This document shows positions 1 to 6,466 of a stretch of 6,466 bases of DNA, piece after piece. Source of the DNA: a virus (Duplodnaviria; Heunggongvirae; Uroviricota; Caudoviricetes); IMG/VR virus record IMGVR_UViG_2606217106_000014, positions 1 to 6,466 of that record; one strand, given 5' to 3'. Below the pieces are notes generated by a model. The model ran no database searches. It worked only from the letters and a program-made list of their open reading frames with translations, and was not told where the DNA came from. Position 1 is the first letter of the stretch; every line of letters starts with the position of its first letter. Made by a program: the position numbers and the translations under genes.

Positions 1-328
1 CACAAGCAACTGATAATGCCCCCGGAGCAGGAGCATCTGTAGCACAGCGCGGGGTGTCGATAAGTTCCACTGGAACCAGAGTCGGAGAGGCCGGAAAAGA
101 TTGTGATACTGTAGGGCCTACAATAGTTGGAGGCATTCTACGAGAAATACGTCCTTCTCTTTGCCAGAGGCGTAGCCATTTAAAAATCAGGTTGTTATCA
201 ACGCCATGTTCCCGGGCCAGTTGTGCAACATTGGCATTTGGTTTCGAAGCCAGTTCAACCATATGAAGTTTAAATTCATTAGAAAATATCCGGCGGGTTC
301 CGGAGCGCCAGTCTGTAGGTTTATCCAT
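1..328 (-). CDS. IS transposase OrfA-like helix-turn-helix protein, N-terminal part (gene continues past window start)
   Basis: Not in the ORF track because it has no stop in the window. Reverse-strand translation from ATG (complement of 326-328) gives MDKPTDWRSGTRRIFSNEFKLHMVELASKPNANVAQLAREHGVDNNLIFKWLRLWQREGR..., open to position 1. The pattern FSxEFK...VAQLAREHGV..NLIFKWLR is typical of IS OrfA HTH domains. GGAG lies 8 nt upstream on the minus strand. Confidence 0.6.
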   Translation of the reverse strand, partial: MDKPTDWRSGTRRIFSNEFKLHMVELASKPNANVAQLAREHGVDNNLIFKWLRLWQREGRISRRMPPTIVGPTVSQSFPASPTLVPVELIDTPRCATDAPAPGALSVAC

Positions 329-341
329 CAATAGAACTCCG

Positions 342-368
342 TCTAATTTAGAAGGAGCTCTAATTTAG
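342..368. repeat. Two exact 10-bp direct repeats TCTAATTTAG (342-351 and 359-368) separated by 7 bp
   Basis: Read directly from the sequence. They lie between the OrfA start and the putative IS terminus, so they may be subterminal transposase-binding repeats. Confidence 0.5.
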
Positions 369-473
369 TCTGCAAGGAGCAGGTGTTACAGACGGCATTG
401 GCTTTACGCTTACCTTACTCTGAACGCCCACCGCGTCCGTCCCGCACATTCCAGCAACGCATCTGGAGGTAAC

Positions 474-1520
474 GTGCGGGTATTACTTCGACCTGTTCTG
501 GTACCGGAACTCGGGCTGGTGATCGTTAAGCCGGGCCGTGAATCCATGCCGGTATTCCACAATACCCGGGTACTGGTGGAGCCGGAACCGAAAAGCATGC
601 GTAATCTGCCGTCCGGGGTCGTTCCTGCCGTTCGCCAGCCGCTGGCGGAGGATAAATCATTACTGCCATTTTTCAGCGACGAACGAGTGATTCGTGCTGC
701 TGGTGGCGCTGGCGCATTGTCTGACTGGTTACTGCGCCATGTTAAATCCTGCCAGTGGCCACACGGCGATTATCACCACAGTGAAACCGTCATTCACCGT
801 TATGGTACCGGCGCAATGGTGTTGTGCTGGCACTGCGACAACCAGCTGCGCGACCAGACCTCCGAATCACTCGGGCAACTTGCTCACCAAAACCTGTCTG
901 CATGGATGATTGACGTCATACGCCATGCAATGAATGGCTCGCAGGAACGGGAATTATCGCTGGCTGAATTATCCTGGTGGGCGGTCCGCAATCAGGTGGC
1001 GGACGCGCTACCGGAAGCGGTATTACGTCGTTCGCTGGGGTTGCGTGCGGAAAAAATCCGCTCAATGTACCGTGAAAGCGACATCGTACCGGGAGAGCAG
1101 ACCGCCACCAGCATACTGAAGCAGCGCACAAAAAATCTTGCGCCGCTGCCTCACGCCCACCAGCAAACCCCGCCACAGGAAAAGACGGTGGTCAGCATTG
1201 CTGTTGATCCGGAGTCTCCGGAATCTTTAATGAAGCGACCTAAACGTCGCCGTTGGGTAAATGAGAAATATACGCGCTGGGTAAAGACACAGCCGTGTGC
1301 GTGTTGTGGTAAGCCAGCCGACGATCCCCATCACCTGATTGGTCATGGTCAGGGCGGAATAGGGACAAAAGCCCACGATATTTTCACGCTACCGTTGTGT
1401 CGGGAGCATCACAACGAACTTCATGCTGATCCGCTGGCATTTGAAGAAAAGCATGGTTCCCAGATTGATTTAATTTTTCGTTTTCTTGATCGCGCCTTTG
1501 CAACCGGCGTGCTCGGGTAA
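474..1520 (+). CDS. DUF968-family prophage protein (YdfU-like) with C-terminal Cys/His HNH-like motif
   Basis: 348-aa ORF with GTG start preceded by GGAGG (465-469). C-terminus CACCGKPADDPHHLIGHGQGGIGTKAHDIFTLPLCREHHNELH has CxxC...HH...C..HH..H spacing resembling an HNH/zinc-finger nuclease fold. Position immediately upstream of rusA and Q matches lambdoid nin regions. Confidence 0.8.
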   Translation: MRVLLRPVLVPELGLVIVKPGRESMPVFHNTRVLVEPEPKSMRNLPSGVVPAVRQPLAEDKSLLPFFSDERVIRAAGGAGALSDWLLRHVKSCQWPHGDYHHSETVIHRYGTGAMVLCWHCDNQLRDQTSESLGQLAHQNLSAWMIDVIRHAMNGSQERELSLAELSWWAVRNQVADALPEAVLRRSLGLRAEKIRSMYRESDIVPGEQTATSILKQRTKNLAPLPHAHQQTPPQEKTVVSIAVDPESPESLMKRPKRRRWVNEKYTRWVKTQPCACCGKPADDPHHLIGHGQGGIGTKAHDIFTLPLCREHHNELHADPLAFEEKHGSQIDLIFRFLDRAFATGVLG

Positions 1521-1532
1521 AAGAGGTTACTG

Positions 1533-1907
1533 ATGCGTATAGAGTTTGTTTTGCCTTACCCGCCGACGGTGAACACCTACTGGCGTCGTCGTGGCAGCAC
1601 ATATTTTGTATCAAAAGCCGGTGAGCGTTATCGCCGGGATGTGGCACTTATTGTCCGCCAGCAGCGGCTGAAATTAAACCTGTCCGGAAGGCTGGCAATA
1701 AAAATTACTGCAGAGCCACCGGATAAGCGCCGTCGTGACCTGGACAATATTCTGAAAGCACCACTGGATGCACTGACGCATGCGGGGCTTCTCATAGACG
1801 ACGAGCAGTTTGATGAAATCAATATTGTGCGCGGTCAGGTCGTTCCCGGTGGGCGGTTGGGCGTGAAAATTTACGAAATAATGCATGACGGGCAGGTCAA
1901 AAAATGA
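1533..1907 (+). CDS. rusA: RusA-family Holliday junction resolvase (crossover junction endodeoxyribonuclease)
   Basis: 124-aa ORF with RBS AAGAGG (1521-1526). PPDKRRRDLDNILKAPLDALTHAGLLIDDEQ matches the RusA catalytic core of E. coli RusA ([30 protein letters not shown]), as recalled. Confidence 0.9.
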   Translation: MRIEFVLPYPPTVNTYWRRRGSTYFVSKAGERYRRDVALIVRQQRLKLNLSGRLAIKITAEPPDKRRRDLDNILKAPLDALTHAGLLIDDEQFDEINIVRGQVVPGGRLGVKIYEIMHDGQVKK

Positions 1908-2725
1908 AGCTGGAAGATTTACCGAAATACTATTCCCCGAAATCGCCTGGCCTGACCGATGCGTCCGCCTCGACATCAAAAGATGCGCTGAGTATCACTG
2001 ATGTGATGGCCGCGCAGGGCATGACACAAAATCGGGCTGAGATGGGTTTTTCTGCGTTCCTTAGGAAAATGGGCATTAGTATGAATGACAGAGAGCGGGC
2101 AACAGAATTGCTGACAGAATATGCACTCAGTCGGTGTGATCGCGTGGCGGCGTTAAGAAAACTCCCGGCAGAAATAAAACCGGTAGTGATGCGCATTATG
2201 GCTTCGTACGCTTTTGAGGATTATGCCCGCAGCGCAGCGAGTAAAAAGCAGTGCCCTTGTTGCTATGGGGAAAAATTTATTGAAAGCGTAGTTTTTACAA
2301 ACAAGGTCCAGTATCCGGATGGTAAGCCGCCGGTATGGGCAAAGTGTACGAAAGGTGTGTATCCGTCTTACTGGGAAGAATGGAAAAAAGTCAGGGAGGT
2401 GGTAAAAGTTGCCTGTCCGGAGTGTGGCGGAAAGGGTGAGGTTTCCACCGCCTGTAAGGATTGCCGTGGGCGTGGTGTCGCCATTCATCGTGAAGAGTCG
2501 GTAAAACGTGGTATGCCTGTTATCAGAGACTGCCAGCGTTGTGGTGGTCGTGGCTGTGAAAGACTACCATCAACGGAGGCATTTAATGCCATATGCAAAG
2601 TGACGAGTGCTATCACGCTTGATACGTGGAAAAAATCAGTGAAACGCTTTTACGATACGTTGGTGGTTCGGTTTGACATTGAAGAGGCATGGGCGGAGCG
2701 GCAGTTAAAGAGGGTAACGCGATAG
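1904..2725 (+). CDS. Q: Lambda-family late antiterminator Q with expanded CxxC zinc-binding region
   Basis: 273 aa. N-terminus (YYSPKSPGLTDASASTSKDALSITDVMAAQGM) and C-terminus (TWKKSVKRFYDTLVV...RVTR) align by eye with lambda Q. Four CxxC motifs, three of them CxxCxGxG (CPECGGKG, CKDCRGRG, CQRCGGRG). ATG overlaps the rusA stop (ATGA at 1904-1907). Confidence 0.85.
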   Translation: MKLEDLPKYYSPKSPGLTDASASTSKDALSITDVMAAQGMTQNRAEMGFSAFLRKMGISMNDRERATELLTEYALSRCDRVAALRKLPAEIKPVVMRIMASYAFEDYARSAASKKQCPCCYGEKFIESVVFTNKVQYPDGKPPVWAKCTKGVYPSYWEEWKKVREVVKVACPECGGKGEVSTACKDCRGRGVAIHREESVKRGMPVIRDCQRCGGRGCERLPSTEAFNAICKVTSAITLDTWKKSVKRFYDTLVVRFDIEEAWAERQLKRVTR

Positions 2726-2730
2726 TGTTG

Positions 2731-2775
2731 TTGATTTTTCCCGAATCTGTGGTAAATTTGCTCTAACGATGGGCG
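2731..2775 (+). promoter_or_regulatory. pR'-like late promoter with qut (Q-utilisation) site
   Basis: TTGATT (2731-2736), 16-bp spacer, extended -10 TGgTAAATT (2750-2758), then TGCTCTAACGATGGG. This closely resembles lambda pR' (TAAATTTGACTCAACGATGGG), including the AACGAT pause-inducing element (2765-2770). Sits directly downstream of Q. Confidence 0.7.
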
Positions 2776-2806
2776 TTTTATGCCTGACGTTATAAGATTT
2801 TTTACA

Positions 2807-2831
2807 CCCCGCCGCCTGGCGGGTTTTTTTA
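2807..2831 (+). terminator. tR'-like intrinsic terminator
   Basis: Stem CCCGCC (2808-2813) / GGCGGG (2818-2823), loop GCCT, then T7 (2824-2830). Predicts a short pR' transcript of about 65 nt. Confidence 0.75.
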
Positions 2832-2952
2832 TGACTGAAATCGCGTCAGTACAGTAAACGCGCTGGTGGCGGTGAATACCTGTCTTTCAGCTTGCTGGCT
2901 TTTTCGACAAGAGTTATTGGTGTGTCACGTTAACCGGAAAAGGGAAAAAGAC

Positions 2953-3150
2953 ATGCTAAAACAGCAGGATATGACAGAAACCGCCAGAGTAGTGTTTAAT
3001 GAATTAAGCGTTACCGAACCGGCGACAGTCGGGGAGATTGCACAGAATACTTACCTTTCACGCGAACGCTGCCAGTTAATACTGACCCAGCTGGTTATGG
3101 CGGGTCTGGCAGACTATCAGTTCGGTTGTTACAGACGCCTTCCGCAGTGA
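2953..3150 (+). CDS. Small hypothetical protein (65 aa), possible winged-helix DNA-binding protein
   Basis: ATG at 2953 preceded by AAAAGGGAAAAAGAC. Translation MLKQQDMTETARVVFNELSVTEPATVGEIAQNTYLSRERCQLILTQLVMAGLADYQ has an HTH-like segment (TVGEIAQNTYLSRERCQLIL). The track's upstream start at 2866 has no RBS. Function unknown. Confidence 0.45.
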   Translation: MLKQQDMTETARVVFNELSVTEPATVGEIAQNTYLSRERCQLILTQLVMAGLADYQFGCYRRLPQ

Positions 3151-3160
3151 AGGCTTTTTT
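3137..3160 (+). terminator. Intrinsic terminator overlapping the stop codon of the small ORF
   Basis: Stem GCCTTC (3137-3142) / GAAGGC (3149-3154), loop CGCAGT, then T6 (3155-3160) and ATTT. Confidence 0.65.
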
Positions 3161-3177
3161 ATTTGTGGTAAATGGGC

Positions 3178-3208
3178 GGCTGGTGGGTGTTAGGGGCACC
3201 CACCAGCC
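3178..3208. promoter_or_regulatory. Perfect 12-bp inverted repeat GGCTGGTGGGTG-N7-CACCCACCAGCC upstream of the methyltransferase
   Basis: Read directly. No T-run follows, so it is not a canonical terminator; could be an operator or RNA processing/stability element. It is preceded by TGTGGTAAAT (3164-3173), which duplicates the pR' -10 region (2748-2757). Confidence 0.4.
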
Positions 3209-3300
3209 ATCTGCTCATGCGTTGGGTTCACAAGCAAACCTCAGGCCCACTGCTTTGCGCAAAAGCAGAATGAGCCTATCAGAGACAGGCTTAATGATCC

Positions 3301-4350
3301 ATGCTTAATACTGTAAAAATATCCAGTTGTGAGTTAATCAACGCCGACTGCCTGGAATTTATCCGGTCGTTACCCGAAAATTCTGTTGACCTGATAGTCA
3401 CGGACCCGCCGTACTTTAAAGTGAAGCCTGAGGGCTGGGATAACCAGTGGAAGGGCGACGATGATTACCTGAAGTGGCTGGACCAGTGTCTGGCGCAGTT
3501 CTGGCGGGTGCTGAAACCTGCCGGAAGTCTTTACCTGTTCTGTGGTCATCGCCTGGCATCTGATATCGAAATCATGATGCGTGAACGCTTCAGTGTGCTG
3601 AACCATATTATCTGGGCGAAGCCGTCCGGACGCTGGAACGGATGCAACAAGGAAAGCCTGCGGGCGTATTTCCCCGCCACAGAGCGCATTCTGTTCGCGG
3701 AACATTATCAGGGGCCGTATCGTCCGAAAGATGCCGGGTATGCGGCGAAGGGCAGTGCACTGAAACAGCATGTGATGGCCCCGCTGATTTCTTACTTTCG
3801 TGATGCGCGCGCGGCCCTGGGGATAACGGCAAAACAGATTGCAGATGCCACAGGAAAGAAAAACATGGTGTCGCACTGGTTCAGTGCCAGTCAGTGGCAG
3901 TTGCCGAACGAAAGCGATTATCTGAAATTACAGGCGCTGTTTGCCCGGGTGGCAGAAGAGAAACATCAGCGCGGTGAACTGGAAAAGCCCCACCACCAGC
4001 TGGTGGATACGTATACGTCACTGAACCGGCAGTATGTGGAGCTGCAGAGTGAATATAAGCATCTGCGGCGGTATTTTGGTGTGACGGCGCAGGTGCCGTA
4101 CACGGATGTGTGGACACATAAACCGGTGCAGTTCTATCCCGGGAAACATCCGTGCGAAAAACCGGCAGAAATGCTGCAGCAGATAATCAGCGCAAGCAGT
4201 CGTCCGGGTGACCTGGTTGCAGATTTTTTTATGGGCTCAGGTTCAACGGTAAAGGCGGCTATGGCGCTTGGGCGTCGTGCAATTGGTGTTGAGCTGGAGA
4301 CCGGACGTTTTGAGCAGACAGTCAGGGAAGTTCAGGATTTAATCGTTTGA
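3301..4350 (+). CDS. Orphan DNA N6-adenine methyltransferase, beta class (N6_N4_Mtase type)
   Basis: 349 aa. Motif IV DPPY near the N-terminus (LIVTDPPYF) and motif I FxGxGS near the C-terminus (DFFMGSGSTVKAAMALGRRAIGVE), i.e. the permuted IV->TRD->I order of beta-class amino-MTases. No restriction endonuclease partner in the window. Confidence 0.9.
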   Translation: MLNTVKISSCELINADCLEFIRSLPENSVDLIVTDPPYFKVKPEGWDNQWKGDDDYLKWLDQCLAQFWRVLKPAGSLYLFCGHRLASDIEIMMRERFSVLNHIIWAKPSGRWNGCNKESLRAYFPATERILFAEHYQGPYRPKDAGYAAKGSALKQHVMAPLISYFRDARAALGITAKQIADATGKKNMVSHWFSASQWQLPNESDYLKLQALFARVAEEKHQRGELEKPHHQLVDTYTSLNRQYVELQSEYKHLRRYFGVTAQVPYTDVWTHKPVQFYPGKHPCEKPAEMLQQIISASSRPGDLVADFFMGSGSTVKAAMALGRRAIGVELETGRFEQTVREVQDLIV

Positions 4351-4399
4351 AACGGATGAGATTGCAGAATTAATTACGCACCATTATTATTCTGCTCCC

Positions 4400-4475
4400 G
4401 GCCCTTTAGCTCAGTGGTGAGAGCGAGCGACTCATAATCGCCAGGTCGCTGGTTCAAATCCAGCAAGGGCCACCA
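4400..4475 (+). tRNA. tRNA-Ile2 (anticodon CAU, ileX/ileZ-like; automated tools may call it Met)
   Basis: 76-nt cloverleaf: acceptor GGCCCTT/AAGGGCC, D-arm GCTC...GAGC, anticodon loop CTCATAA, T-arm GCTGG-TTCAAAT-CCAGC, discriminator A, encoded CCA. Near-identical in layout to E. coli ileX as recalled. Confidence 0.85.
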
Positions 4476-4482
4476 TCACATA

Positions 4483-4559
4483 CCGCCATTAGCTCATCAG
4501 GAAAGAGCGCCAGCCTTCGAAGCTGGTTGCGCGGAGTTCGGGTCCCCGAAGGCGGTCCA
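4483..4559 (+). tRNA. tRNA-Arg-like, apparent anticodon UCG, with non-canonical features
   Basis: D-arm GCTC...GAGC, anticodon stem CCAGC/GCTGG with loop CTTCGAA, T-loop TTCGGGT, 3' CCA. Acceptor CCGCCAT/AAGGCGG has one mismatch and starts with C; the T-stem has one mismatch. Boundaries +/- 2 nt. Confidence 0.6.
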
Positions 4560-4572
4560 TTATCTGTATCCT

Positions 4573-4649
4573 GCGTTGTTAGCTCAGCCGGACAGAGCAA
4601 TTGCCTTCTAAGCAATCGGTCACTGGTTCGAATACAGTAGAACGCGCCA
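4573..4649 (+). tRNA. tRNA-Arg (anticodon UCU)
   Basis: Acceptor GCGTTGT/AGAACGC (one mismatch), D-arm GCTC...GAGC, anticodon stem ATTGC/GCAAT with loop CTTCTAA, T-loop TTCGAAT, discriminator G, encoded CCA. Confidence 0.8.
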
Positions 4650-4664
4650 CACTTATTTTCCCTG

Positions 4665-4688
4665 GCTCGCTTTTGCGGGCTTTTTTTT
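4665..4688 (+). terminator. Intrinsic terminator downstream of the tRNA cluster
   Basis: Stem GCTCGC (4665-4670) / GCGGGC (4675-4680) with one G-U pair, loop TTTT, then T8 (4681-4688). Confidence 0.6.
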
Positions 4689-4900
4689 AAATGTCTCATA
4701 ATTCAGGCGGTTGACTGTTGTCTGGTTTGCGGGGAGTTTGTTAAAAGAAACTGGCATGGTGAATCCCCCTGTGCGGAGGGGCAATCAGCAACTGGTGTTT
4801 TGTCACCGACCCTTATCCTTTCTGTGCGGGTTCAGGTGCTGATACTGAACTCACCGGGAGGCACCCGGCACCATGCAATGGCACATAGCGCCACTCTCCA

Positions 4901-4925
4901 GCCCCTCTCCGGAGGGGCTTTCTTA
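4901..4925 (+). terminator. GC-rich hairpin with weak U-tract (terminator-like or RNA structural element)
   Basis: Perfect 8-bp stem AGCCCCTC (4901-4908) / GAGGGGCT (4913-4920), tetraloop TCCG, then TTCTT. Confidence 0.35.
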
Positions 4926-4930
4926 TGGAC

Positions 4931-4958
4931 AAAAAAATCCCGCGCTGGGAGACGCGGG
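4931..4958 (-). terminator. Minus-strand intrinsic terminator
   Basis: On the minus strand: stem CCCGCG (4958-4953) / CGCGGG (4944-4939), 8-nt loop, then A and T7 (4937-4931). Confidence 0.45.
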
Positions 4959-5152
4959 CGGCAAGGAATAAACAACAAAACGTGAAGTAATATTTCAGTT
5001 GGCGAATAATATCCGACAGTAATCACTCTGCGCAATAGCGCGGCCTTTTTCGTATTGCGGGCTGTTGTCTATCTTCTGCCATTGTCCTGTAACTTCCGGA
5101 CTTCAGCCCGCTCCTCATTTTACTCACAATATTATCCAGGCCGGGAGGATTC

Positions 5153-6466
5153 ATGGCATTTAAACACTATGACGTGGTCAGGGCGGCGTCGCCGTCAGAC
5201 CTTGCGGAGCGACTGACACAAAAACTGAAGGAAGGCTGGCAGCCGTTTGGCAGTCCTGTGGCTATCACGCCTTATACACTGATGCAGGCCATTGCCGCAG
5301 AGGGTGATGTGACCACGCCTGTGGTTGTGCCCGACACAGGGGCTGGTGGCTCTCCGGGAGTGGCTACCACTGAACCGGAGTATTACTACGTTATTCCCCA
5401 GGCCGGGCAGTCGAACGGTATGGCCTATGGTGAGGGGCTTCCTCTGCCGGAGACCTATGATCGCCCTGACTCCCGTATTAAGCAGCTGGCCCGTCGCAGC
5501 ACTGTGACGCCGGGTGGTGATACCTGTGCATACAATGACGTTATTCCGGCAGACCACTGTCTGCATGATGTTCAGGACATGAGCGCACTTAACCATCCTC
5601 ATGCAGACCTGAGTAAGGGCCAGTACGGGACTGTCGGTCAGGGGCTGCATATTGCCAAAAAACTGCTGCCTTATATCCCGCAGAATGCCGGGATTCTTCT
5701 GGTGCCCTGTTGCCGTGGCGGGTCTGGTTTAACCGTGGGTAATGACGGCACGTTCAGCGAAACGTCTGGCGCATCGGCAAATTCAGCCCGCTGGGGAGTG
5801 GGTAAACCGCTGTATCAGGATTTTCTCTTCCGTACAAAAGCGGCGCTGTCGAAGAACCCGAAAAACAGGCTTCTGGCCGTGGTATGGATGCAGGGGGAAA
5901 ATGATCTTGCGGACGGCAGTCAGCAGCACAGCGGCCTGTTTACCACTATGGTGCAGCAGTTCAGGGCTGATATGGCTGCATATTCTGCACAGTGTGTTGG
6001 CGGAAGTGCTGGCTCGGTGCCGTGGATTTGTGGTGACACCACGTATTACTGGAAGAATCTTAACGCCGATAAATATGAGGCGGTATATGGCGGTTACAAG
6101 GGCAGGGAAGCACAGAATATTTTCTTTGTTCCTTTTATGACGGATGAGAATGGACAGAGCACGCCAACGAATGCTCCGGCGGAAGACCCGGATATTGTGG
6201 CTGTCGGGTATTACGGTGCAGCATCCCGAACCCAGGGCAGTTTTGTTTCGACACAGCGTGACAGCCATTTCAGCTCATGGGCACGCAGGGGCGTCATTTC
6301 AGACCGTCTGGCCTCAGCTATTATGCTCCATGCAGGGCGCACGGCTGAATTGATGCGCGGGCAGACCGTGACACCACCGGATGAGAAGCCGTCACCTGAT
6401 ACACCATCAAAACCGTCCACGCCACCCGCAGACACCACGACGATGAGTACGCTATTTGCTTACCGG
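5153..6466 (+). CDS. nanS-p: NanS-p-type prophage sialate O-acetylesterase (DUF1737 N-domain + SASA/SGNH esterase domain), 5' partial - runs off window end
   Basis: Not in the ORF track because there is no stop in the window; 438 codons open from ATG 5153 (RBS GGGAGGA) to 6466. Translation MAFKHYDVVRAASPSDLAERLTQKLKEGWQPFGSPVAITPYTLMQAIAAEG... then YYYVIPQAGQSNGMAYGEG (GQSN catalytic-serine block), and a Pro/Thr-rich linker TPPDEKPSPDTPSKPSTPPADTTT near the window end. Confidence 0.85.
   Translation, partial: MAFKHYDVVRAASPSDLAERLTQKLKEGWQPFGSPVAITPYTLMQAIAAEGDVTTPVVVPDTGAGGSPGVATTEPEYYYVIPQAGQSNGMAYGEGLPLPETYDRPDSRIKQLARRSTVTPGGDTCAYNDVIPADHCLHDVQDMSALNHPHADLSKGQYGTVGQGLHIAKKLLPYIPQNAGILLVPCCRGGSGLTVGNDGTFSETSGASANSARWGVGKPLYQDFLFRTKAALSKNPKNRLLAVVWMQGENDLADGSQQHSGLFTTMVQQFRADMAAYSAQCVGGSAGSVPWICGDTTYYWKNLNADKYEAVYGGYKGREAQNIFFVPFMTDENGQSTPTNAPAEDPDIVAVGYYGAASRTQGSFVSTQRDSHFSSWARRGVISDRLASAIMLHAGRTAELMRGQTVTPPDEKPSPDTPSKPSTPPADTTTMSTLFAYR

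Follow-up and report, generated by a model that had tools for sequence, protein, structure and literature searches.

The 6,466-nucleotide stretch analysed here, which is positions 1 to 6,466 of the IMG/VR virus record IMGVR_UViG_2606217106_000014 (Caudoviricetes) and is called the window below, very probably carries a gene for a small RNA (sRNA) of the STnc100 family at 4754–4927 on its plus strand. The RNA is most likely Hfq-dependent and trans-acting, pairing with its targets through its 3' part and carrying a structured 5' scaffold. The element is already known: it belongs to a curated Rfam family, STnc100, and is related to the RNAs PasD and EcOnc27. What may be new are refinements of the family's description, namely a pseudoknot, a corrected first hairpin and a modular build.

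Several observations support the family assignment. A scan of the whole window against Rfam returned one strong match other than tRNAs, to RF02076 (STnc100, "Gammaproteobacterial sRNA STnc100"), which spans 4725–4930 (+) and model positions 1–206 of 206 with a score of 143.2 bits (gathering score 47; E = 1.3e-32). The consensus helices form in the window copy, with comparative support for the closing helix P1, the hairpin at 4828–4852, hairpin 2 and the terminator; the exceptions are two short outer helices of the model, of 3 and 4 bp, which are non-canonical here and do not form. The location is that of an enterobacterial phage or prophage, with genes for RusA, a Q antiterminator (PF03589) and a methylase, tRNAs and a DUF1737-SASA esterase gene on the flanks. 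With its helices and its prophage late-region context in common with STnc100, the window RNA shows nothing that excludes membership. The predicted RNA has a folding energy of -73.4 kcal/mol, below all of 200 shuffled sequences (z = -3.48).

An earlier note on this DNA had described three GC-rich stem-loops at 4760–4925 and read them either as a structured RNA or as repeated protein-binding sites. All three exist, and all three are helices of the RF02076 consensus. The first, in the form given there (CCCCT-GTGCGG-AGGGG, 4766–4781), and the second (CCGGG-AGGCA-CCCGG, at exactly 4854–4868) were placed correctly; the third, AGCCCCTC-TCCG-GAGGGGCT, lies at 4900–4919 rather than 4901–4920 and is followed by TTTCTTAT. 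The structured-RNA reading holds, given the full-length match and helices that covary or are conserved in relatives. A lack of covariation or conservation in homologous prophages, which the note had named as the outcome that would speak against it, is not what the relatives showed. Absent from the note were the helix 4754–4761/4869–4876, the hairpin at 4828–4852, the pseudoknot and a convergent RNA on the minus strand. The features of the predicted RNA are as follows.

4754–4927 (+): predicted STnc100-family small RNA, about 174 nt, delimited by the Rfam match, an alignment with PasD (5' end) and the terminator (3' end)
4754–4761 (+): 5' strand of closing helix P1, GCAUGGUG, complementary to 4869–4876 at 8 of 8 positions
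4764–4781 (+): hairpin 1 in its bulged register, UCCCCC (4764–4769), loop UGUGC (4770–4774), GG (4775–4776), bulged A4777, GGGG (4778–4781)
4784–4790 (+): 5' strand of the pseudoknot, AUCAGCA, pairing with 4837–4843
4793–4808 (+): hairpin of the variable insert (UGGUG...CACCG), specific to the window's subtype, from the minimum free energy (MFE) fold
4828–4852 (+): hairpin GGGUUCAG, loop GUGCUGAUA, CUGAACUC, from the Rfam consensus and the MFE fold
4837–4843 (+): 3' strand of the pseudoknot, UGCUGAU, in the loop of the 4828–4852 hairpin
4854–4868 (+): hairpin 2, CCGGG-AGGCA-CCCGG, directly continuous with the 3' strand of P1
4869–4876 (+): 3' strand of P1, CACCAUGC, from complementarity and covariation
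4877–4899 (+): variable, mostly single-stranded stretch AAUGGCACAUAGCGCCACUCUCC, a candidate target-pairing ("seed") region by comparison with PasD
4900–4927 (+): hairpin 3, an intrinsic terminator, AGCCCCUC-UCCG-GAGGGGCU followed by UUUCUUAU, found by a scan for terminator-like sites (8 pairs, 6 of them G-C)

Relatives were collected with two pattern scans of IMG/VR, one anchored in the 5' junction and hairpin 1 and the other in hairpin 2. They yielded 189 instances with 126 distinct 5' domains of 112–148 nt, from which 65 non-redundant domains were aligned with MAFFT for the analysis of covariation after removal of an unalignable insert. Across these 65 relatives 86.2% of the alignment cells are paired, compared with 73.2% after shuffling (none of 500 shuffles reached the observed value) and 43–46% when the partners were slid, and 25 of the 34 pairs have changed on both sides. 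P1 is paired in 90.8% of cells and six of its eight pairs have changed on both sides, one of them being A-U in 29 sequences and G-C in 28. In the hairpin at 4828–4852, which occurs in all 126 distinct domains, 88.4% of cells are paired and all eight pairs have changed on both sides. Hairpin 2 is paired in 100% of cells: three of its pairs never change, a fourth is compensated from G-C to U-A, and in the fifth a G-U occurs. It is kept in nearly all copies found through the other anchor and is deleted in PasD. The segment between the 5' pseudoknot strand and the next hairpin differs across the family in both length and sequence. The region 4754–4876 (about 123 nt) is a compact domain built from the closing helix P1, the bulged hairpin 1, the pseudoknot and the near-invariant hairpin 2, which stacks on P1. 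Most of the distant copies in IMG/VR still score as STnc100 (52–88 bits), and by blastn Klebsiella phages and Salmonella phage Fels-1 carry relatives of these distant types.

The alignment favours a different register for hairpin 1 from the one in the earlier note and in Rfam, although both registers use the same run of C and the same run of G. The bulged register is paired in 99.5% of cells across the 65 sequences, compared with 86.8% for the register of the earlier note, whose U4770-A4777 pair, also part of the Rfam structure, fails in 29 of them. The bulged register was picked independently by RNAalifold and is fully compensated in two clades (GCGGC/GC(A)CGC and CCUUUC/GAAAGG). When the window copy is folded alone, the whole nested structure has an energy of -66.0 kcal/mol with the earlier note's register and -63.9 kcal/mol with the bulged one.

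A segment of 6–10 nt on the 3' side of hairpin 1 is complementary to the loop of the 4828–4852 hairpin, and the two segments change together across the family. In the window the complementarity was detected by a repeat search (4784–4794 with 4833–4843, 91%). Covarying pairs include AUCAGCA/UGCUGAU, CUGGUG/CACCGG, CCAGUC/GACUGG, CUAGAC/GUCUAG, CCAGUUA/UAACUGG and AAUGAC/GUCAUU, as well as GCCAGGUCG/UGACCUGGC and UAUCAGUAC/GUACUGAUA. In an alignment-free test, 66 of 83 distinct pairings had at least six consecutive pairs, compared with 7.3% for shuffled loops; in all, 41 distinct duplexes occur at a consistent offset. We preferred this test to a column-wise count on the MAFFT alignment, in which the register shifts between clades and the pseudoknot is only 54% paired. 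The duplex has an energy of -8.1 kcal/mol, and the nested structure (-63.9 to -66.0 kcal/mol) plus the duplex matches the MFE of -73.4 kcal/mol. No pseudoknot appears in the Rfam consensus line, in a 2026 preprint on PasD and STnc100 or in the literature that we searched, to which subscription papers did not belong. These results suggest that the Rfam structure of STnc100 is incomplete: the model leaves the pseudoknot unencoded, the bulged register suits hairpin 1 better than the register it holds, and its first 29 or so positions are probably promoter DNA.

The 3' part of the RNA, about 50 nt, behaves differently from the 5' domain. Sequence comparison indicates that it is exchanged as a module among relatives: the window's own 3' module (AAUGGCACAUAGCGCCACUCUCC plus terminator) is found in identical form behind three different 5' subtypes, and at least 49 types of terminator and many single-stranded stretches occur behind the same 5' domain. 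The spacer between domain and terminator has a median length of 24 nt and ranges from 1 to 80. In isolation the terminator hairpin of the window has an energy of -17.3 kcal/mol, and it coincides with the end of the Rfam model. Its outer pairs covary between copies (AG/CU, AUG/CAU, AUAC/GUAU, AAAU/AUUU). Among the 189 copies, 84 have a terminator with GGAGGGG and 67 an unrelated one, and 38 have none within 125 nt. A terminator/antiterminator switch between hairpin 1 and the terminator, whose arms are 73% complementary, was considered and rejected as not general, most other terminators being unlike hairpin 1.

The exchange of the 3' module also bears on the sequence core that hairpins 1 and 3 were said to share. 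The sequence is present: the 9-mer CGGAGGGGC occurs at 4774–4782 and 4910–4918, and a related CCGGGAGG at 4854–4861, in the 5' half of hairpin 2. Neither its frequency nor its conservation as a pair stood up. GGAGGGG occurs twice in the window, where 0.71 occurrences are expected, and 31 of 200 shuffles reach two. Hairpin 1 is kept in every relative, and the sharing of GGAGGGG vanishes whenever the 3' module is exchanged. We conclude that the CGGAGGGG core is incidental, because only 84 of the 189 copies carry the GGAGGGG terminator.

It is very unlikely that the hairpins are repeated sites for one protein, whether of the GGA type bound by CsrA on RNA or operator-like on DNA. A GGA lies at the loop-stem boundary of each of the three, and the window holds two copies of CCGGGAGG (expected, 0.18; 2 of 200 shuffles have as many), the second being the ribosome-binding site of the esterase gene at 5141–5148. 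Yet many relatives have GGU or GGC in place of the GGA of hairpin 1, a variation that, on the sequences compared, argues against a common GGA-type protein site and led us to reject the CsrA-type reading. The terminator with GGA is replaced by unrelated ones in more than half of the copies, and covariation in the stems preserves pairing but not sequence, a hallmark of RNA structure as opposed to a site on DNA. In hairpin 1 the A of the core is itself a variable bulge (A, U or C), and in the terminator it is a paired base. The three stem-loops are not repeats of one another; hairpin 1 is an internal bulged hairpin, hairpin 2 is near-invariant and stacked on the closing helix, and hairpin 3 is the intrinsic terminator. 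The recurrence of CCGGGAGG at 5141–5148, ahead of the ATG at 5153, may be a coincidence.

The idea that these are functionless, chance palindromes in GC-rich spacer DNA can be set aside with near certainty. Taken alone, two copies of GGAGGGG in 6.5 kb are insignificant, but the Rfam E value of 1.3e-32, the extensive covariation and the detection of relatives as RNAs in experiments refute it, as does the spread of the element. Of 5426 complete E. coli genomes, 2776 carry similar DNA, with as many as 12 sites in one genome. So do 298 phage records, most of them Shiga toxin (Stx)-converting, one of which labels its homologue STnc100. A scan of genome contigs with the 15-mer CATGGTGAATCCNCC gave chance matches in unrelated phyla only.

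Where transcription begins was judged from relatives. In enteropathogenic E. coli (EPEC), RNA-seq placed the 5' end of PasD2 at a base that aligns to G4754, the first base of P1, which lies 6 nt after the following element:

4739–4747 (+): candidate extended -10 element TGtTAAAAG, weak, read from the sequence

A sigma-70 match of at least 8 of 12 positions with its -10 ending 3–7 nt before P1 is present in 80 of 120 distinct upstream regions, compared with 10 of 120 shuffled ones; an example from Klebsiella phages is TTGAAA-17-TAAATT. With such a promoter in most family members, the RNA is probably not merely part of the late transcript of which the earlier note speaks. For a discrete transcript, the window copy offers a clear terminator and a weak candidate promoter.

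In Klebsiella phage ST512-KPC3phi13.1 (locus L306, 3517–3804) a near-consensus promoter (TTGAAA-17-TAAATT with TG) is followed by the 5' domain and, after about 170 nt, by the first terminator. This variant sits between the Q gene, which has its own promoter-terminator pair, and tRNA-Asn plus a holin gene. Lambda 6S RNA and StxS, the leader transcripts from pR' to tR', resemble the window element as short terminated transcripts in the late-operon leader downstream of Q. The window element differs in lying 2 kb beyond the terminator-like sites that follow Q, after a methylase gene and three tRNAs, and in ST512-KPC3phi13.1 a separate promoter-terminator pair precedes the STnc100-type element.

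Relatives with experimental data include PasD1 and PasD2 of EPEC strain E2348/69 (Pearl Mizrahi 2021), which are abundant, Northern-confirmed, Hfq-dependent RNAs of 172–173 nt that form chimeras through their 3' part in sequencing of ligated, interacting RNAs (RIL-seq) (PMC8550237). According to a 2026 preprint (Zhu, Shabalina and Storz, bioRxiv 10.64898/2026.05.13.724894), PasD and STnc100 descend from one ancestor and have a consensus fold in common. The PasD RNAs share with the window RNA a homologous 5' domain (GCAUGGUGAAUCC..GGAGGGG, a GAGUUC/GAACU hairpin and a closing GCCAUGC), the length class of 172–173 nt and a place ahead of a gene for a SASA esterase or a holin, with a PF03589 Q gene close by. 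They differ in the loss of hairpin 2 through a 7-nt deletion, in another 3' stretch (seed UGUGAG), in their terminator, GGCUGCGCAUGGCGCGGCC, and in scoring below the Rfam gathering score. The window RNA is not PasD itself: both E2348/69 loci align in the 5' domain only, the 3' part of PasD is unrelated and its hairpin 2 is deleted.

Another relative, EcOnc27 (sRNA103) of E. coli O157:H7 (Tree 2014; Gruber and Sperandio 2015), lies just after stx2B, overlaps an STnc100 annotation and binds Hfq (PMC12711010; PMC7873438), the binding having been recorded by Hfq-CRAC (crosslinking and analysis of cDNA; PMC7873438). In one machine-learning study, no genomic feature predicted haemolytic uraemic syndrome (HUS) more strongly than sequence variants in the Stx2a copy of STnc100 (PMC12711010). 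EcOnc27, in prophage Sp5, resembles the window RNA in its equivalent slot, its STnc100 overlap and its dyad with a convergent sRNA (AsxR). The Sakai copy is 69.8% identical and aligns over window positions 4700–4877 only (1–178 of a 261-nt query); therefore it has a different 3' module.

By comparison with these relatives, we propose that the RNA would have a promoter of its own, with its 5' end near G4754 and its 3' end at the terminator, at about 4927. Hfq would be bound through the terminator and U-tail, and the single-stranded 3' stretch, which includes an anti-Shine-Dalgarno-like CACUCUCC, would pair in trans with mRNAs or other sRNAs. The structured 5' domain would serve as a conserved scaffold, with stability, processing or the binding of a factor as candidate roles, and together with a convergent sRNA on the minus strand the RNA would form one dyad of Hfq-binding sRNAs of the kind seen in prophages of enterohaemorrhagic E. 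coli (EHEC). We favour this mechanism because Hfq binding and pairing in trans have been shown for PasD1 and PasD2 in EPEC and for EcOnc27/sRNA103 in EHEC.

Other relatives depart from this plan. In some phage contigs of IMG/VR, two to five STnc100-type units stand in tandem about 253 nt apart, each with its own 3' stretch and terminator, at the following loci:

L248, 342–1038
L256, 1810–2335
L271, 4349–5513 and 8357–8555
L277, L270 and L264

The arrays of L248, L256 and L271 comprise 3–5 copies. Promoter matches before the copies of the L271 array are weak, and these copies may be co-transcribed and processed. The Salmonella island sRNA isrI (RF01392) adjoins STnc100-type copies in L271 (5220–5316), L264 (8665–8763) and L245 (5465–5560), which suggests that phage sRNA genes recur in such clusters. 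In the early-left operon of Klebsiella phage ST405-OXA48phi1.2 (MK416007.1; locus L308, 3500–3660), between the repressor gene and kil, lies a distant variant of the 5' domain that stays below the Rfam gathering score. Its hairpin 1 is GCGGC/GC(A)CGC and its P1 is a perfect helix of 22 bp. It lacks both a promoter and a terminator of its own, and directly on its 3' side come a Shine-Dalgarno sequence and an ATG. It looks like an mRNA leader and is a possible substrate of RNase III.

A number of facts count against the view of the element as an Hfq-dependent sRNA with a 3' seed and a 5' scaffold. The consensus promoter scan of the region gave no plus-strand promoter at the element; the candidate -10, TAAAAG, is without the conserved final T, and the -35 is poor. 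The U-tail UUUCUUAU is interrupted. The MFE fold of the window copy swaps hairpin 1 for a long-range pairing, of GUGCGGAGGGG with CCUUUCUGUGC, an alternative that we rejected as subtype-specific, its pyrimidine stretch being absent from the commonest domain type, of 118 nt. The conservation of hairpins 1 and 2 is overstated, both having served as sequence anchors in the collection of relatives, as is the significance of the shuffle tests, the sequences being related. A seed with a scaffold leaves three things unexplained: the 38 of 189 relatives without a nearby terminator, the relative inside an mRNA leader (L308), and the loops and junctions of the 5' domain (GUG-AAU, the loop U-N-N-G-C, UCA and CCGGGAGGCACCCGG), which are more conserved than the pairing region and the covarying stems. 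Finally, Rfam and reviews list the function of the family as unknown.

Some of these points fit better with another explanation, which we consider less probable, namely that the pseudoknotted 5' domain is itself the functional part and binds a conserved host or phage factor, whether to act as decoy or sponge or to modify RNA polymerase or the ribosome, with the 3' modules as add-ons. Stated in full, and held only tentatively, the idea is that temperate phages of enterobacteria use the domain of about 120 nt, with its invariant CCGGGAGGCACCCGG hairpin, as an autonomous functional RNA with a tertiary fold that binds a conserved host or phage factor or acts on the transcribing polymerase, and that is deployed in stand-alone sRNAs with swappable modules, in tandem arrays and in mRNA leaders. 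Rfam and the searchable literature on STnc100 give nested hairpins only and no function. In favour of autonomy are loops and junctions more conserved than covarying stems, a pseudoknot kept through 41 distinct duplexes, the persistence of the domain while 3' modules swap, its tandem arrays, and the copy in ST405-OXA48phi1.2, which sits inside the early-left operon with its 22-bp P1, lacks its own promoter and terminator and is followed at once by a Shine-Dalgarno sequence and ATG. However, PasD works as an Hfq sRNA without hairpin 2, the way in which the relatives were gathered accounts for part of the conservation of hairpins 1 and 2, and the PasD chimera coordinates that we examined lie in the 3' part.

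It is doubtful that the element acts in cis on the late or early transcript, either as an antiterminator like HK022 put or as an element for processing or stability through RNase III or RNase E. Its orientation is always that of the downstream genes, it sits downstream of Q or the late promoter and ahead of the lysis genes, and one distant member occupies a nutL/putL-like place between repressor and kil. Long perfect helices are substrates of RNase III, and the 22-bp P1 of that member would be one. Against a role in cis are the strong terminator of the element, the accumulation of relatives as discrete RNAs of about 170 nt and the promoter-like site in most members. HK022 put is comparable in that it, too, is a structured RNA encoded by a phage and located close to the beginning of an operon; one distant family member lies in the early-left operon. 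It shares no motif with the window RNA, which unlike put ends in its own terminator. The put RNA is a V-shaped pair of stem-loops of 73 nt with a triplex and without such a closing helix or pseudoknot (PMC9378689). Homology with put was rejected on these differences of architecture and on the absence of the family's conserved motifs at or near the HK022 put sites.

The sRNA gene is not alone in its slot. Window positions 4860–5175 are about 97% identical to prophage PP6 of E2348/69, and the corresponding RNA on the minus strand is defined by these features:

about 5112–4931 (-): convergent partner sRNA, about 97% identical to E2348/69 PP6 1444797–1444978 (-)
5131–5159 (-): promoter-like site ATGCCA-17-GATAAT, the only sigma-70-like hit in 4300–5400 (9 of 12 matches)

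The EPEC RNA, E2348C_1409.E2348C_1408.IGR, is an Hfq-bound hub in RIL-seq, with cfa, dppA and tir among its partners and GGCAAGG as its target motif; its EHEC homologues are listed as EcOnc08, EcOnc21 and EcOnc42 (PMC8550237). In the window the minus-strand RNA has a terminator at 4958–4939 followed by U7, the seed CCUUGCC (the complement of 4960–4966) and a GU-rich stretch, GUUUUGUUGUU; its promoter-like site lies about 20 nt upstream of the EPEC-mapped 5' end as transferred to the window. It belongs to no Rfam family, and it was rejected as AsxR or AgvB, with no Rfam match even at E values up to 10. It resembles those two RNAs in its convergent position relative to an STnc100-type RNA and differs from them in being the homologue of E2348C_1409.E2348C_1408.IGR. 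Convergent sRNA dyads (AsxR/EcOnc27 and AgvB/EcOnc06) occupy the region from the late promoter to the lysis genes in at least eight Sakai prophages (Tree et al. 2014, as reviewed in PMC7873438). The non-coding slot of the window likewise holds a convergent pair of sRNA genes in that region, with facing terminators about 20 nt apart; by analogy with their relatives, both RNAs would bind Hfq.

The hairpin region, 4760–4925, is non-coding, as the earlier note had supposed. It is flanked by a tRNA-Arg ending at 4649 and by the esterase gene (ATG 5153), which has DUF1737 and sialate-esterase (SASA) domains and leaves the window. The two open reading frames (ORFs) that overlap the hairpins, 4800–4985 (+) and 4832–5035 (-), have no Pfam match. 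Coding potential was rejected on this ground and on 5'-domain lengths that differ by non-multiples of three. All that RefSeq annotates over the locus is, on the opposite strand, a "hypothetical protein" pseudogene that is frameshifted or incomplete; the sRNA itself has no annotation. Examples are L310, 5096–5236 (E. coli SCPM-O-B-9504, where the locus is 99.4% identical), and L001, 1198–1439. The pseudogene is probably an annotation artefact repeated over many genomes.

Upstream of the element are genes for DUF968, RusA, the PF03589 Q antiterminator and an N6/N4 DNA methylase, which places the element in the leader of the late region of a lambdoid prophage. Genes follow one another in the order Q antiterminator, DNA methylase, three tRNAs, STnc100 RNA, sialate-esterase gene and lysis genes, with the tRNAs placed as follows:

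4400–4475: tRNA-Met-CAT
4483–4559: tRNA-Arg-TCG
4573–4649: tRNA-Arg-TCT

Phage VT2-Sakai has Q, then tRNA-Ile/Arg/Arg and the genes stx2A and stx2B; its homologue begins 50 nt past stx2B and is followed by SASA esterase and holin. The window prophage has no stx genes, and its layout is an stx-less version of that of VT2-Sakai. A terminator-like hairpin with T8 lies at 4664–4681, directly 3' of the tRNA cluster, and two further terminator-like sites lie just past the Q gene, at 2759–2775 and at 2808–2823 (the latter with T7). The sites after Q fit a separate leader transcript of the pR' type; no sigma-70 consensus promoter was found near them.

In most respects the finding is an ordinary one. 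The RNA belongs to a curated Rfam family, similar DNA is present in about half of the complete E. coli genomes, and the equivalent slot in Stx phages was already known to hold Hfq-binding sRNAs. The interest that remains is that STnc100 is among the most often annotated sRNAs and has so far been given no function (PMC9029176), while variants of its Stx2a copy were predictors of HUS in one study (PMC12711010). A covarying, pseudoknotted 5' domain with swappable 3' modules provides an architecture that can be tested directly with mutants.

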